A DNA stretch of 64,000 bases, from the NCBI GenBank assembly GCA_937895515.1, contig CALAYS010000157.1, positions 12,462 through 76,461 on the forward strand, given 5' to 3'. Origin of the DNA: an uncultured bacterium. GTDB taxonomy: Bacteria > Patescibacteriota > Minisyncoccia > Phycocordibacterales > UBA9973. The notes beneath the pieces were generated by a model. The model was not told the origin of the DNA. It did not search any database and worked only from the letters and a program-made list of their open reading frames with translations. The position numbers and the translations under genes are program-made. Within the stretch, counting starts at the first letter, position 1, and every line of letters begins with the position of its first letter. Shown one piece after another: positions 34,433 through 41,672 of the stretch.

Positions 34433-34467
34433 AAGGTTGCTATTCATAAGTAGTAGCCTTTTTATTT
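34433..34467 (+). terminator. intrinsic terminator
   Basis: 10-bp stem AAGGTTGCTA / TAGTAGCCTT (two G-U pairs), 8-nt loop, then TTTATTT. Confidence 0.65.
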
Positions 34468-34494
34468 GCTTTAAAAGCATAATTTTGCTATAAT
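34466..34494 (+). promoter_or_regulatory. promoter TTGCTT-N17-(TGc)TATAAT for tRNA-Ile and the atp operon
   Basis: Follows terminator 34433..34467. Palindrome CTAGGCGCCTAG starts right after the -10. Confidence 0.6.
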
Positions 34495-34538
34495 CTAGGC
34501 GCCTAGTGGATTTAGTCACGGGTTGATCTTTCGTTTAT

Positions 34539-34610
34539 GCGTGTATAGTTCAGTGGTAGAACGCTGTCCTGATAAGACAGAGGTCCTTGGTCCGATTCCA
34601 AGTACACGCA
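34539..34610 (+). tRNA. tRNA-Ile (anticodon GAT)
   Basis: Hand-folded: acceptor GCGTGTA/TACACGC, D arm GTTC-AGTGGTA-GAAC, anticodon stem CTGTC/GACAG with loop CTGATAA, T arm CTTGG-TCCGATT-CCAAG. 72 nt; CCA not encoded. Confidence 0.9.
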
Positions 34611-34611
34611 C

Positions 34612-34938
34612 ATGGATGAAATCCAAAGTAACATTAATGATGGTAAGAAAAAATCAATCTTATTCAGTCAAGAATTAAGTTTTGGTTTGAATTTATCTTA
34701 CTGGATAATTTTTCCAGTAATCATTGGGTTTTTCCTGGGTAGATATATTGTTGATAAATTTAATCTACCAGAATATGTTTTTTATTCAATTTTAATTTTC
34801 TTTGTATTATCTTCTTTTTATGGACTCAGTAAGGAAATTTTAAAATATTTAAAAAAATTACAAAAAGAAGAAACTCGAAAAGTTCCCAAAAACAATGAAA
34901 TTAAAAATAATGAACAAGATTGGAATAAATTTAATTAA
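34612..34938 (+). CDS. AtpI/AtpZ-like small membrane protein, first gene of the atp operon
   Basis: Two TM helices (YWIIFPVIIGFFLGRYI, VFYSILIFFVLSSFYGL). Positioned immediately upstream of atpB. Confidence 0.6.
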   Translation: MDEIQSNINDGKKKSILFSQELSFGLNLSYWIIFPVIIGFFLGRYIVDKFNLPEYVFYSILIFFVLSSFYGLSKEILKYLKKLQKEETRKVPKNNEIKNNEQDWNKFN

Positions 34939-34940
34939 AC

Positions 34941-35897
34941 ATGACAGACACTAATATAGAAAACAACGAAATACATACAACAAATACAGAAGTTCTTCAG
35001 CAAGAAGATCATTCTTCTAGTAACCAAGAAACATCTCACGAAGCAACACTTTATGCAGAACCTATTGGTACTATTGGATCTTTTACTGTAACTAATGCAT
35101 TACTAACAAGCTGGATTGCTATATTTATTTTTGCAATAATTGTTTTAGTTTTTAGACTTAAGAAAATCAAATTAATCCCAGGAAAATTTCAAAACTTTTT
35201 TGAATTAATTATTCATGGGGCTTTAAATCTATGTGACCAAGTAACAGGTAACCGCAAGGTTTCAATAAAAGTTTTCCCAATTGTTTTTTCTTTGTTTGTT
35301 TTTGTACTAATTAACAACTGGGTTGGAATACTTCCAGGAGTTGGGTCTTTTGGTCATATTGTAAATGAAAACGGTCACAGTGTATTTGTACCACTATTAC
35401 GCGGGGCAACTGCTGATATTAATACAACATTAGCTATTTCTTTGTTTACGGTAATTGCTTCAAATATTTTCGGTATAATTACTCTTGGTTTATGGAAAGG
35501 TATAAACAAATACGTAAAAATTTCTGAGCTTGCTAAAATGCGCAATTTTATGAAAGAACCAACTATCCTAATAGTTGCACCTATTCATTTTTTTGTTGGT
35601 ATCTTAGAAGCTATTGGTGAAGTTGCTAAAGTTGCATCACTTACATTTCGTCTTTACGGTAATGTTTTTGCAGGGGAAGTGTTATTAGCTTCTATGGCAG
35701 CGATATTTTCATTTCTACTACCAGTACCATTTTTATTCTTAGAATTTTTCGTAGGCCTTATACAAGCATTTATCTTTTCAATGCTGACGCTTGTATATTT
35801 TTCAATCCAAGCAACCGACCATGATGAACACGATTCCCATGAATCTACGCATCATGATGAAAAACATCACGAGCAAATAGCTCAGGGATCGGTTTAA
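34941..35897 (+). CDS. atpB: F0F1 ATP synthase subunit a
   Basis: LTFRLYGNVFAGEVLL contains the conserved Arg. Polytopic, with a hydrophilic N-terminal extension and a His-rich C-terminal tail. Confidence 0.93.
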   Translation: MTDTNIENNEIHTTNTEVLQQEDHSSSNQETSHEATLYAEPIGTIGSFTVTNALLTSWIAIFIFAIIVLVFRLKKIKLIPGKFQNFFELIIHGALNLCDQVTGNRKVSIKVFPIVFSLFVFVLINNWVGILPGVGSFGHIVNENGHSVFVPLLRGATADINTTLAISLFTVIASNIFGIITLGLWKGINKYVKISELAKMRNFMKEPTILIVAPIHFFVGILEAIGEVAKVASLTFRLYGNVFAGEVLLASMAAIFSFLLPVPFLFLEFFVGLIQAFIFSMLTLVYFSIQATDHDEHDSHESTHHDEKHHEQIAQGSV

Positions 35898-35904
35898 TTA
35901 TTAG

Positions 35905-36141
<237 letters not shown>

Positions 36142-36169
36142 TATTTAATCACATTAATTAGAAAATTTT

Positions 36170-36661
36170 ATGGACTCATTAGTATCAACATTTCATATCG
36201 ACTTTAAACTTGTTATCGCTCAGCTTATAAACTTTGCTGTTGTTCTTATTCTTGTTTACTATGTTTTAGGTAAACCATTAATTAAGATGATGAACAAAAG
36301 AGACATTCATATTAAAGAAGGTATCGATAATGCTGCTAATGCTCTTGAGCTCATTAAAAAGACCGAGGAAGAATACGAAGCAACACTTCTTAAAGCAAAA
36401 ACAGAAGCTAGTGATTTTTTTCAAGAAGTAAAAAAACAAACTGAAGCTAAAAAATCAGCAATGCTGGAAGATGCAAGACTTGAAGTTGAGACTCTTATTG
36501 CTAATGGTCAAAAGTCTTTAGAAATTGAAAAACAAAAAATCTTAGCAGAAGCAAAGAAAGAAATTGTAGAATTAACAATAACTGCTACTAGCAAAATTCT
36601 AGCAGAACATAGCGGGTCTACTCTTAGTCAAGATACTATAAGTAAAATAAAATCCGTTTAG
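36170..36661 (+). CDS. atpF: F0F1 ATP synthase subunit b
   Basis: N-terminal TM followed by a long charged helix; operon position. Confidence 0.88.
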   Translation: MDSLVSTFHIDFKLVIAQLINFAVVLILVYYVLGKPLIKMMNKRDIHIKEGIDNAANALELIKKTEEEYEATLLKAKTEASDFFQEVKKQTEAKKSAMLEDARLEVETLIANGQKSLEIEKQKILAEAKKEIVELTITATSKILAEHSGSTLSQDTISKIKSV

Positions 36662-36664
36662 CCT

Positions 36665-37069
36665 ATGTCTTCAGTTCCAATTTCAAAAATTGCCCACAAA
36701 ATACATTCTTCTGTAAAGGATAAATCAGGAGATAGTTTGGATAAAACTCTAACTAGTATTGTAAAGATACTTTCTAAAAATAAATTACTGTCCAAGTCTA
36801 ACGAAGTTCTAGAAAAATTAGAAAATTTATTAGATAAAGAAAATGGAATTATTCGAGCAAAAGTATATACAGCACATAAAATCGGAGCAGATAATCTTAA
36901 AGAAATAGAAAAAGAATTAAAAAATAAATACAAAACCAAAACCATCTATATTACTGTTATTGAAGACCCTAAAATCTTAGGTGGGATAAAAATCCAAATA
37001 AAAGATCAAACAATAGATCTAAGTTTGCAAAAAAAGGTTACCCAATTAAAAAAACATTTACTTAATTAA
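36665..37069 (+). CDS. atpH: F0F1 ATP synthase subunit delta (OSCP), N-terminally truncated (134 aa)
   Basis: C-terminal ILGGIKIQI...[15 protein letters not shown] matches the OSCP C-terminal domain. Only about 43 residues precede it. Operon position between b and alpha. Confidence 0.8.
36794..37066 (+). repeat. delta C-terminal domain coding segment (copy 1 of an intra-operon duplication)
   Basis: Over 91 codons, 62/91 aa are identical to 39505..39777 by hand alignment. The last 27 nt including the stop are identical. Confidence 0.9.
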
Positions 37070-37086
37070 GAGACATTATTATAGAT

Positions 37087-38586
37087 ATGAATAACCACAT
37101 TGTAGAAAATTTAAAAAACCAAATTGAAGACTATAAAGCCGATTTTAAAATTGAAAAAATTGGTCATGTTGTCGAGGTTTTTGACGGTATTGTAAAAATA
37201 TCTGGATTATCTGATGTTAAAGCATCGGAAATGGTCTCGTTCCCAAATGGTGAAATTGGTGTGACTTTGAACCTGGACGAAGATTCTGTTGGGGTAATTG
37301 TTTTGGGTGATTTTTCTAAAATCCGTGAAGGTGATTTTGTGAACTCAACTGGTAAAATTTTGGAAGTTCCAGTAGGAGAAGCTGTAATTGGACGCGTAGT
37401 AAATGCACTAGGAGCACCAATTGATGGTAAAGGTCCTATTGCATCAAATACAAAATACCCAATCGAACGTGTGGCATCTGGTGTTGTAACACGTCAATCT
37501 GTAGACCAACCAGTACAAACTGGTATCAAAGCAATTGATGCATTAATTCCAATTGGTCGTGGTCAACGTGAACTTATCATTGGAGACCGTCAAACAGGTA
37601 AAACCGCTATTGCTATTGATGCAATTTTAAATCAAAAAGGCCAAAACATGAAATGTGTTTATGTTTCTATTGGCCAAAAAGATTCAAAGCTTCGTAAACT
37701 TCAAACTCGTCTTGAAGAAGGTGGAGCAATGGATTACACAGTGATAGTTTCTGCTGGTTCATCTGAATCGGCTGCTCTATCATATATCGCACCTTATACA
37801 GGAGTATCTATTGCAGAATACTTTATGGATAAAGGTGAAGATGTTTTAATAATTTATGATGATTTGTCTAAACACGCAGTAGCATACCGTGAAATATCAC
37901 TTCTTCTACGTCGTCCACCAGGCCGTGAAGCTTACCCTGGAGATGTGTTTTATTTACATTCAAGACTACTTGAAAGAGCTTGCCGAAAAAACAAAGAATA
38001 TGGCGGTGGTTCAATTACAGCTTTGCCTATTATTGAAACTCAAGCTGGAGACGTATCAGCATATATTCCAACAAACGTTATTTCAATTACCGACGGGCAA
38101 ATCTTCTTAGAAACAGATTTATTTTATAAAGGTATCCGCCCAGCAGTAAACGTAGGGTTGTCTGTTTCTCGTGTTGGGGGATCAGCTCAAATCAAAGGTA
38201 TGAAAAAAGTTGCAGGTACTCTTAAACTAGACCTTGCACAATTCCGTGAATTGGAAGCTTTTTCACAATTCGGATCAGATTTAGATGATGCAACAAAACG
38301 CCAACTAGAGCGTGGTAAAAGAGCCGTAGAACTGCTTAAACAACCTCAATATTCTCCAATTATTGTAGAAAAACAAATTGTCTCACTATATGCTCTTGTA
38401 AAAGGTATGATGGATAATGTACCGGTAGATCGTATTAAAGAATTTGAAGCTGGTTTATCTGATTATGTTGAAGCAAACGCAAAAACATTTATGAAAGAAA
38501 TTACAGATTCAAAAATGTGGACCGATGCCGGTGAAGCAGAATTAGTAAAATCAATTGAAGATTTTAAAGCAGGATTCTTAAAATAA
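37087..38586 (+). CDS. atpA: F0F1 ATP synthase subunit alpha
   Basis: [12 protein letters not shown]-loop; 499 aa. Confidence 0.98.
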
Positions 38587-38592
38587 AACTTT

Positions 38593-39780
38593 ATGGCTGG
38601 GACAAAAGAAATTAAAAGAAGAATAAAGTCTGTAAAGAACACAAAGAAAATCACGAAAGCGATGGAGCTTGTTGCTGCTAGTAAAATGAAAAGAGCAGTG
38701 GCTAGTACTTTATCTTCGCGATTATATGCACAATATTCTTGGGAGATTTTAAAATCAATAAGCCAAAATTCAGAACAAATCAGTCATCCGTTTTTTATAG
38801 GCTATGACCAAGAAAAAATTTTATTTGTATTAATTACTTCAAACCGTGGTTTGTGTGGGGGGTATAATTCGCAAGTTCTTAAAAAAACAATTTTAAAACT
38901 TAAAGAATTAAATTCTCTTGGTTCAGACGAGATTGATGTTGTTACTATTGGTAAAAAGGGTGGCATTGGAATGCGTAGAATTGGGCAAAATGTAATTGCT
39001 TCTTTTGATAATTTACCAGAACATATAGATTTAATGGATACGGTTCCAATTTCTAGATATATTGTTGACCAATACAAAACTGGTAATTACAAAAAAGTTT
39101 ATGTTGCTTATACTGACTTTATCTCAGCACTAAATCAAAAACCTAGTATTAAACAATTGTTACCAATATCAAAAAAAGATTTATTAGAAGCTATCGAATC
39201 AATAGGGGAAGATAAAATCCAAAAAGATTCAGATTCTAATGAAAAACCAGATTATCTATTTGAGGGAAATCAAGAATTATTAATAGATGCTTTGGGTGAA
39301 AAAATTTCTCGAATGCAAATATACCAAATGTTACTGGAATCAAATGCATCCGAACAATCGTCCCGTATGGTTGCCATGAAGAATGCATCCGAAGCTGCAG
39401 GGGAAATGATTGATGATTTAACACTGGTATTTAACAAAGCTCGTCAGGCAAATATCACTCAGGAAATATCAGAGATTAGTGCCGGAATGTCGAGCATGGT
39501 GGCTAAGTCAGATATTGTATTAAACAACTTGGAAGAACTAATAGACAAAGAGCACGGAATAATTCGACCTAAAATATATACAGCTAATAAAATTCCACAA
39601 GAGATCATTAAAGAAATTGAGCAAGAATTAAAAAATAAATACAAAGCCGAAGAAGTTATAATCACGGAAATAGAAGACCCAAATATCTTAGGTGGAATAA
39701 AAATCCAAATATCGAACGAAATAATTGACTTGAGTCTACAAAAAAGAGTCGCTCAATTAAAAAAACATTTACTTAATTAA
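38593..39780 (+). CDS. atpG: F0F1 ATP synthase subunit gamma fused to a delta-C-terminal-domain-like extension (395 aa)
   Basis: KRRIKSVKNTKKITKAMELVAASKM ... NKARQANITQEISEISAG is a full gamma. Residues 305-395 repeat the atpH C-terminal domain. Confidence 0.9.
   Translation: MAGTKEIKRRIKSVKNTKKITKAMELVAASKMKRAVASTLSSRLYAQYSWEILKSISQNSEQISHPFFIGYDQEKILFVLITSNRGLCGGYNSQVLKKTILKLKELNSLGSDEIDVVTIGKKGGIGMRRIGQNVIASFDNLPEHIDLMDTVPISRYIVDQYKTGNYKKVYVAYTDFISALNQKPSIKQLLPISKKDLLEAIESIGEDKIQKDSDSNEKPDYLFEGNQELLIDALGEKISRMQIYQMLLESNASEQSSRMVAMKNASEAAGEMIDDLTLVFNKARQANITQEISEISAGMSSMVAKSDIVLNNLEELIDKEHGIIRPKIYTANKIPQEIIKEIEQELKNKYKAEEVIITEIEDPNILGGIKIQISNEIIDLSLQKRVAQLKKHLLN
39505..39777 (+). repeat. 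delta C-terminal domain coding segment (copy 2, fused to atpG)
   Basis: See 36794..37066. Confidence 0.9.
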
Positions 39781-39787
39781 TAGATAG

Positions 39788-41149
<1,362 letters not shown>

Positions 41150-41171
41150 AATTTTTAAAAACTAATTCCTT

Positions 41172-41621
41172 ATGTCAAATAAAAAATTAAAACTAAAAAT
41201 AGTAACACCGGAAAAACTTATTCTAGAAGAAGAAGTTGATCAAGTTGTGATACCTACAACAGAAGGTGAAGTTACAATCTTACCTGAGCATATTGCTATT
41301 GTAGTAGGACTTGCATCAGGTGATGTTGTGGCATTTAAGGATGGTGAATTAATTCCAATGGCTGTAGTTGGGGGATTCTTAGAAGTAAGTAAAGACAGTC
41401 GTGGGTATACTACCGCTACTGTTTTAGCTGACTTTGCGGAACATGTTGGTAGTATTACAGATGATGAAATAGTTAAAGCCAAAGCCCGCGCCGAAGAACT
41501 TAACAAACTAGCTGAAAATAAAGAAATTGTAGACTTTGAACGATTTGCAACAGAACTAGAACGATCTCTAACCCGCGTAAAAATCGCTGATAAATGGAGA
41601 ACTAAAAAATATCGTAAATAA
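41172..41621 (+). CDS. atpC: F0F1 ATP synthase subunit epsilon
   Basis: LKIVTPEK...EGEVTILPEH beta-sandwich plus a C-terminal helical hairpin. Confidence 0.9.
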   Translation: MSNKKLKLKIVTPEKLILEEEVDQVVIPTTEGEVTILPEHIAIVVGLASGDVVAFKDGELIPMAVVGGFLEVSKDSRGYTTATVLADFAEHVGSITDDEIVKAKARAEELNKLAENKEIVDFERFATELERSLTRVKIADKWRTKKYRK

Positions 41622-41636
41622 TTTCACGTAAAAAAT

Positions 41637-41672
41637 AACCCCGTAAATCAATACGGGGTTTATTTATTTTTT
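41637..41672. terminator. atp operon terminator (bidirectional)
   Basis: AACCCCGTA-aatcaa-TACGGGGTT followed by a T-rich run; convergent gene downstream. Confidence 0.85.

Follow-up and report, generated by a model that had tools for sequence, protein, structure and literature searches.

How can translation of an ATP-synthase operon begin when its first start codon lies directly against the 3′ end of a tRNA gene? The question is raised by a 64,000-nucleotide (nt) stretch of DNA from an uncultured Nomurabacteria-type member of the Patescibacteria (GenBank assembly GCA_937895515.1, contig CALAYS010000157.1, positions 12,462 to 76,461; hereafter the window), in which a tRNA-Ile(GAU) gene on the forward strand (34539..34610) is separated by a single nucleotide from the ATG of an atpZ-like gene (34612..34938, forward strand), the first cistron of an atp operon. 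The tRNA thus flanks the coding sequence directly, at a distance in the range of 0 to a few nucleotides that leaves no space for a leader, as in tRNA punctuation. We propose that excision of tRNA-Ile(GAU) from a shared transcript yields an atp mRNA that begins with (C)AUG, and that the nuclease responsible would be one other than canonical RNase Z; we put the probability of this reading at roughly 0.6. The genome bin that contains the window (G000; 1.87 Mb) carries 9% contamination, and because it is mixed the main counts were also made in a congener that is clean and 100% complete (G007; 683 kb fetched); the genomes of relatives measure 0.5–0.9 Mb.

The anatomy of the junction is confirmed. 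Rfam model RF00005 matches 34539..34610 with 71 bits (E 5e-15, against a gathering score of 29), ARAGORN calls tRNA-Ile(gat) with a span of 34539..34611, i.e. with the C after the discriminator added, and direct reading of the sequence gives a 7-bp acceptor stem (GCGTGTA/TACACGC), a GAU anticodon, and A34610 as discriminator A73. The 72-nt gene does not encode CCA. Discriminator A34610, C34611 (forward strand), and the ATG at 34612-34614 follow one another in the local letters ACATGG, and C34611, which corresponds to tRNA position 74, matches the C found after the discriminator in nearly all CCA-less tRNA genes of the lineage. A preliminary description of this DNA had placed tRNA-Ile(GAT), without encoded CCA, 1 nt before the ATG, and all three lines of evidence agree with it. 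Leaving aside a phage-like contig, this is the sole tRNA-Ile(GAU) gene of the bin, and the complete congener G007 also has only one. The tRNA shows the canonical features with one deviation, C in place of U at T-loop position 55: the T-loop (34591-34597) reads UCCGAUU, and position 55 is almost universally U (pseudouridine). The sequence GGTCCGATTCC is common to tRNA-Ile(GAU) across much of the family and is absent from the other tRNAs of the genome.

The tRNA and the atp genes appear to form one transcription unit. Upstream, a terminator-like hairpin with a T-run (34433..34460, forward strand; a 12-pair stem followed by TTTTATTT) closes a gene for a 70-residue membrane protein, and relatives have a hairpin and T-run at the same place; it probably insulates the tRNA–atp unit from upstream transcription. 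It is followed by a promoter on the forward strand (34466..34494) with the −35 element TTGCTT (34466-34471), a 17-nt spacer, and the extended −10 element TGcTATAAT (34486-34494). TTGC-N16-TGNTATAAT has its single match in the window here, with 0.01 matches expected from shuffles, and TTGCnn-N17-TGnTATAnT is kept in nine relatives from several genera, within a cross-genus layout of hairpin and T-run, TTGCnn, 17 nt, TGnTATAnT, a GC-rich box, and an AT-rich leader 5′ of the tRNA. The promoter call of the preliminary description is thereby borne out. Judged from the position of the −10 element, the precursor would carry a 5′ leader of ~38 nt (34501..34538, forward strand). Between this promoter and the ATG, the tRNA included, we found neither a further promoter-like site nor a terminator-like one; downstream, a strong intrinsic terminator (41637..41660, forward strand; a 9-pair stem and a T-run) follows atpC. 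Because a terminator stands 5′ of the promoter, none stands between tRNA and ATG, and no promoter-like site lies in the tRNA, co-transcription of the tRNA with the atp genes seems to be the only reading that the anatomy allows.

The operon order is atpZBEFHAGDC; atpB begins 2 nt after the end of the first open reading frame (ORF), and atpB, atpE, atpF, atpH, atpA, atpG, atpD, and atpC occupy 34941..41621 on the forward strand, with AT-rich intercistronic gaps of 2-31 nt and a Shine–Dalgarno motif nowhere in the operon. The first ORF encodes an AtpZ/AtpI-like small membrane protein of 108 residues with two hydrophobic helices. Its own match to PF09527 (ATPase_gene1) is weak (16.8 bits, E 0.007, under the cut-off of 26.6 bits), and 11 of 13 aligned AtpZ homologues match the family at E up to 0.01, the best at 1.5e-9; its location 2 nt ahead of atpB suits the family. 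Between two congeners the ratio of nonsynonymous to synonymous substitution rates (dN/dS) of atpZ is 0.095, and codons 1-20 are also constrained in the same pair (dN 0.186, dS 1.49); these values exclude unaligned equal-length pairs of a second genus, for which the ratio is meaningless. AtpZ has the same N-terminal length as its homologues from genomes with a spacer in place of the junction. A start further downstream was rejected: no in-frame alternative start, ATG included, is conserved among the homologues compared, and translation from the TTG at codon 26 would leave the first helix truncated. Comparison of the sequences thus indicates a real gene that begins at the ATG at 34612.

The junction recurs among relatives. 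Of the 15 closest atpB loci, 14 have tRNA-Ile(GAU) upstream of atpZ-atpB and co-oriented with it, and at the remaining one (L014) the tRNA has the opposite orientation. The exact A73-C-ATG junction is present in five species of the window's genus despite strongly different AtpZ sequences. Of 401 genomes sampled across the family, 27 have A73-C-ATG, in four genera and with five different acceptor-stem sequences, whereas a control pattern read backwards gave zero matches. In 24 of the 27 the ATG opens a real ORF (AtpZ-like in 21, rsmI-like in two, another membrane protein in one), and the remaining three are chance ATGs in hairpin spacers. The abutment of tRNA and ATG therefore goes beyond chance, and the conservation in related genomes that the preliminary description had proposed to check is found. 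All GTDB species representatives were then scanned as well, and 80 of the 117 hits were examined. For ORFs of at least 60 residues, the distance from discriminator to ATG was 1 nt (C) in 20 cases, 2 nt in nine (CC in five, CT in four), 3 nt in eight (CCC in four, CAT in three, CAA in one), 4 nt in 10 (various), 5 nt in one (CTGTT), and 6 nt in three (various). Patescibacterial spacers among the examined hits always start with C, are never 0 nt long, and consist of C only in about 30 of 52; in the CC class, an encoded CCA is completed by the A of the ATG.

A start codon at the very 5′ end of a message would be in keeping with the way in which genes of this genus seem to be started in general. 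Among 973 ORFs delimited in the bin by a crude ORF caller, 158 have a TATAAT-like hexamer that stops exactly 6 nt short of the first ATG, versus ~15 per neighbouring position; among operon-leading ORFs the count is 99 of 596 (versus 10.6), 59 "internal" ORFs also carry the box at 6 nt, and a reversed-motif control gave much weaker peaks. The congener G007 repeats the pattern (112 of 659 ORFs versus 10), and Shine–Dalgarno-like 4-mers are not enriched upstream of its ORFs; the 3′ end of 16S rRNA, sought for a check of the anti-Shine–Dalgarno sequence, is not present in the bin. By these counts the genus is to be regarded as essentially without Shine–Dalgarno sites and rich in leaderless genes, which bears out the earlier suggestion that the leaderless design extends to other genes. 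It resembles in this respect the leaderless "group C" genomes of GeneMarkS-2 (Actinobacteria, Deinococcus-Thermus), in which a Pribnow box lies 6-8 nt before the start codon (PMC6028130): here a −10 hexamer stands 6 nt before the ATG in 15-17% of all ORFs, the messages are predicted to be AUG-initial, and Shine–Dalgarno sites are lacking. Leaderless genes have also been described in mycobacteria (PMC4633059) and in Deinococcus deserti (PMC4007540). The atpZ gene differs from such primary leaderless genes. No −10 box precedes it, as the hexamer at −12 to −7 is AAGTAC and lies inside the tRNA, and its 5′ end should accordingly be unable to arise by transcription initiation and would have to come from RNA processing.

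A second gene suggests that the two sources of a 5′ end can replace each other. On another contig of the bin (C82:6586-7075, locus L067), a ruvX-like gene has its ATG 4 nt behind the end of a tRNA-Arg(GCG) (A-C-TAT-ATG). The corresponding gene in one relative (G004) is preceded by tRNA-Arg-C-A-ATG, with a spacer of 2 nt; in another (G006) TATACT stands between the tRNA and the ATG, 6 nt ahead of the latter; and in most other relatives there is no tRNA, and TGnTATAnT lies 6-8 nt before the ATG. Since either a tRNA end or a promoter precedes the ruvX start in different relatives, the 5′ end would be supplied by either, and a tRNA end can, on this comparison, be interchangeable with a leaderless promoter at an orthologous start codon.

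These observations bear on a simpler account, in which the junction reflects compaction without function: the tRNA and atpZ would be co-transcribed, atpZ would be begun by Shine–Dalgarno-independent internal initiation on the precursor or on partly processed RNA, and the 1-nt gap would be the end point of spacer loss. Initiation of this kind is plausible, given that the internal atp cistrons start without Shine–Dalgarno sites after short AT-rich gaps, and spacer loss would suit both the very small genomes (about 0.7 Mb) and the range of spacer lengths among relatives, from 1 to about 40 nt. Neutral decay, however, predicts neither the pile-up of spacers at the minimum (20 with C alone versus 1-10 in each longer class) nor the constant retention of the C; in the precursor, the folded acceptor stem would end 2 nt before the AUG, without the unstructured track that precedes the internal cistrons; and before ruvX a tRNA end takes the position of a leaderless promoter. 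We consider this account unlikely.

Which enzyme could make the cut? The preliminary description had named RNase Z, and this is not supported: in profile searches with TIGR02651 and PF12706, none of 41 genomes of the order, this genome included, gave a canonical RNase Z over the cut-off. The best TIGR02651 score here (20.5 bits) falls on the ORF of RNase J, and the other metallo-beta-lactamase-fold proteins found are a beta-CASP RNase and a UPF0173-like hydrolase; RNase Z was accordingly rejected as the cutter. Searches of the genome for RNase E/G and for a stand-alone RNase PH also found neither. Present are RNase P RNA (RF00010, 103.9 bits, above the gathering score), RNase J, RNase Y, RNase R, PNPase, and a CCA-adding enzyme. 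The beta-CASP RNase, a protein of 464 residues encoded on the minus strand of contig C117 (locus L030:673-2067), has Thermus thermophilus TTHA0252 as its closest solved relative (E 1e-64), followed by Cas14 of type VII CRISPR and CPSF73, and ORFs of similar length with weak cross-matches to it occur in nearly all relatives searched. We regard it as a candidate for the missing tRNA 3′ endonuclease.

The sequences that follow the tRNA genes obey a rule that may reflect such an enzyme. In the bin outside the phage-like contig, C follows the discriminator in 49 of 59 CCA-less tRNA genes and A comes next in 39 of 59. In G007 (loci L091-L128, 33% G+C), where 32 of the 36 tRNA genes lack CCA, the figures are 32 of 32 for C at +1 and 28 of 32 for A at +2. 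The register of these tRNAs is right, because their discriminators (C73 for His, U73 for Cys, G73 for Asp, Gln, Asn, and Trp) fit the known identity rules. The atpZ junction, A-C-A(TG), follows the same N73-C-A rule, with the A of the ATG at the +2 position. Taken with the lack of 0-nt spacers, this rule suggests that the tRNA retains C74 or that the cut requires it. The cut after the discriminator that the preliminary description assumed, giving C-AUG, is not supported: the universal C leaves room for, and may favour, a cut after the C and hence an exact 5′-AUG.

The same inventory of RNases accommodates an alternative in which the two products of the transcript are mutually exclusive: the precursor would be cut inside atpZ and its tRNA trimmed by exonucleases (RNase R/PNPase) in the manner of Mycoplasma, so that a single transcript would end up as a mature tRNA-Ile or as a translatable atpZ but not as both, and 3′ fragments would serve to express the downstream atp genes. 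One-step trimming of tRNA 3′ ends by RNase R has a precedent in Mycoplasma genitalium (Alluri and Li 2012, as cited in PMC4014445); the RNases of this genome form a Mollicute-like set (RNase R, PNPase, RNase J, and RNase Y found; RNase Z, E/G, and PH not found), and the terminators that lie within about 30-40 nt downstream of most other tRNA genes here suit exonucleolytic trimming. This alternative nevertheless leaves unexplained why the start codons of three to five unrelated genes lie exactly at a tRNA end, and why A at +2 is conserved after N73-C (28 of 32), which suggests recognition of sequence downstream of the cut. It is also at odds with the strong purifying selection on atpZ from codon 1, and, as the tRNA-Ile(GAU) gene is the sole one, heavy demand for the tRNA would sacrifice most atpZ messages. 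We judge it improbable. Hardly credible is a third account, a hidden promoter inside the tRNA gene that fires at the A of the ATG and makes the atp mRNA a primary leaderless transcript, which we rejected for want of any promoter-like site: genes of this genome normally have leaderless promoters, some of which, as the 59 "internal" ORFs indicate, lie inside upstream genes, but AAGTAC has two of six matches to TATAAT and no terminal T, a forward-strand promoter scan found nothing between 34284 and 34750, and the 3′ half of the tRNA is bound by tRNA function and differs between the lineages that have the junction.

Excision of the tRNA from a shared transcript, the reading we prefer, would proceed as follows. 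Transcription from the promoter at 34466-34494 to the terminator at 41637-41660 would give one precursor with tRNA-Ile(GAU) and nine atp genes. RNase P would remove the ~38-nt 5′ leader, and the tRNA 3′ end would be set by a second cut, which could follow the discriminator or, as we think likelier, C74, in the latter case falling just before the A of the AUG. This one cut would both free the tRNA for the CCA-adding enzyme and leave an mRNA starting with (C)AUG; RNase Y, RNase J, and the conserved TTHA0252-like beta-CASP RNase are candidates for it. Ribosomes would load on the 5′-terminal AUG, translate atpZ, and re-initiate on the tightly packed downstream cistrons, and the tRNA 3′ end would thereby fill the role predicted, at hundreds of other genes, for a −10 box 6 nt ahead of the ATG. 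Such a processing model explains, as far as sequence comparison can tell, all the comparative facts. A more specific version, which we offer as tentative, is that in this RNase Z-less lineage an unrecognised endonuclease cuts CCA-less tRNAs between C74/C75 and the A of the trailer. The mark left by this enzyme would be the N73-C-A rule, ATGs would have been placed repeatedly at its cutting site, one cut would mature the sole tRNA-Ile(GAU) and create the exact 5′-AUG of the atp mRNA, and tRNA ends would serve as a general substitute for promoters.

Several points weigh against tRNA excision as the source of the atp mRNA. Only a minority of the family genomes, 27 of 401, has the junction, and close relatives manage with tRNA–atpZ spacers of 15-40 nt. 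The model requires an endonuclease, but canonical RNase Z and RNase E/G were not found, and an inventory of RNase R, PNPase, RNase J, and RNase Y would equally allow tRNA 3′ ends to be trimmed by exonucleases only. Internal AUGs without Shine–Dalgarno sites are evidently used within operons, so a 5′-terminal AUG is not strictly required. Finally, an mRNA with a 5′-monophosphate would be a substrate for the 5′-exonuclease activity of RNase J.

Comparison with known systems helps to place the proposal. In animal mitochondrial DNA, as Ojala, Montoya and Attardi (cited in PMC4633059) reportedly described in 1981, RNase P and RNase Z/ELAC2 cut out the tRNAs and thereby release leaderless mRNAs. The atp junction shares with this punctuation a tRNA that lies 0-1 nt from a start codon, an implied single polycistronic precursor, an implied leaderless mRNA free of Shine–Dalgarno sites, a translation apparatus presumably suited to a 5′-terminal AUG, and genes of an energy-conversion complex. 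It differs in that the organism is a bacterium with sigma-70-type promoters and terminators, that punctuation is seen at the 5′ end of an operon only, that no RNase Z homologue was found in the searches described above, that a templated C always stands between discriminator and AUG, and that the tRNA end is interchangeable with leaderless promoters. Because the 3′ enzyme was sought and not found, and because only the operon 5′ end is punctuated, we would describe the junction as working, by analogy, like mitochondrial tRNA punctuation in function without being a member of that system.

Among bacteria, the thrU-tyrU-glyT-thrT-tufB operon of Escherichia coli offers a parallel. There, tRNAs and a protein gene share a promoter and the tRNAs are cut from an mRNA-containing precursor; a long spacer with its own Shine–Dalgarno site follows the last tRNA, so that processing is not needed for the start of translation, and E. 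coli tRNA genes encode CCA and are matured by RNase E and exonucleases. The tRNA–atp unit likewise appears to have a shared promoter and a tRNA within an mRNA precursor; unlike tufB, it has no Shine–Dalgarno leader after the tRNA. In the minimal RNA-processing set of Mollicutes, every tRNA gene encodes CCA and the CCA-adding enzyme has been lost (Grosjean et al. 2014, PMC4014445). Here, too, RNase P, J, Y, and R are present while RNase Z and RNase E were not found, and many leaderless mRNAs and short pre-tRNA leaders are predicted. Unlike in Mollicutes, most tRNA genes lack CCA (32 of 36), the CCA-adding enzyme is kept, and tRNA genes end in N73-C-A.

If the proposal is true, a bacterial lineage of free-living type makes the end of a leaderless ATP-synthase mRNA by tRNA excision of a mitochondria-like kind, and one promoter ties the sole supply of tRNA-Ile(GAU) to the expression of the energy machinery. 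It would also link two questions about Patescibacteria, namely how translation starts almost without Shine–Dalgarno sites and which enzyme trims CCA-less tRNAs without RNase Z. For annotation, it would follow that gene starts 1-6 nt from a tRNA in these lineages should be accepted and not trimmed. In the literature searched we found no report of leaderless initiation, tRNA punctuation, or loss of RNase Z in Patescibacteria; what is added here is the atp case with its sole tRNA-Ile(GAU), the failure to find RNase Z in 41 genomes, the N73-C-A rule, and the spectrum of spacers.

The predicted transcription start is marked by a GC-rich element, CTAGGCGCCTAG (34495..34506, forward strand). The preliminary description had taken it as a perfect 12-bp palindrome that could be an operator or a hairpin of the 5′ leader. 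The palindrome is present, in its perfect form in this genome only; among eight sequences the GCGC core is invariant, 3-4 nt after the −10 box, the arms of the palindrome are not conserved, and RNAalifold finds no consensus pairs in the 5′ leader sequences. A conserved leader hairpin or palindrome was therefore rejected. A shared regulon motif was rejected as well, because no other credible promoter of the genome carries the element. A discriminator-like or operator-like role is possible; the genome has a RelA/SpoT homologue, and a discriminator role of the stringent type is only a guess. A helix between leader and trailer, formed in the minimum-free-energy fold by AUGGAUGAAA and the 5′ leader, proved no stronger than in shuffles across 24 junction loci and was set aside as incidental.

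The promoters of other tRNA genes are built differently. In G000 and G007, many tRNA genes have a TGnTAnAnT box that ends 8-9 nt before the mature 5′ end, and the predicted 5′ leaders of their precursors measure 1-3 nt; tRNA-Ile, with its leader of ~38 nt and conserved GCGC box, is the exception: the other tRNA promoters of the genome lack the GC-rich element, and most of them lie 8-9 nt before the tRNA 5′ end. At four loci of relatives (L002 in G001, L021 in G005, L006 in G014, and L013 in G021), partial copies of the 5′ or 3′ end of tRNA-Ile accompany GC-rich inserts next to the intact gene; the order in G001 is promoter, leader, truncated 5′ fragment of the tRNA, insert, and full tRNA. These copies look like small insertion elements at tRNA ends.

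The phage-like contig mentioned above (C77, 136 kb) carries ~30 tRNA genes, nearly all of which encode CCA, among them two further tRNA-Ile(GAU) genes and one tRNA with a CUA anticodon, and has the appearance of a large phage. The trailer rule of the host tRNA genes is not followed on several contigs of the bin with low GC or encoded CCA; besides C77, the contigs noted in the mixed bin are C179, C58, C73, and C64. In the atp operon itself, the ORF of the gamma subunit (38593-39780) has a fused C-terminal copy of the C-domain of the delta subunit (OSCP; Pfam OSCP E 7e-17, residues 309-393), and the stand-alone delta subunit (36665-37069) is only 134 residues long.

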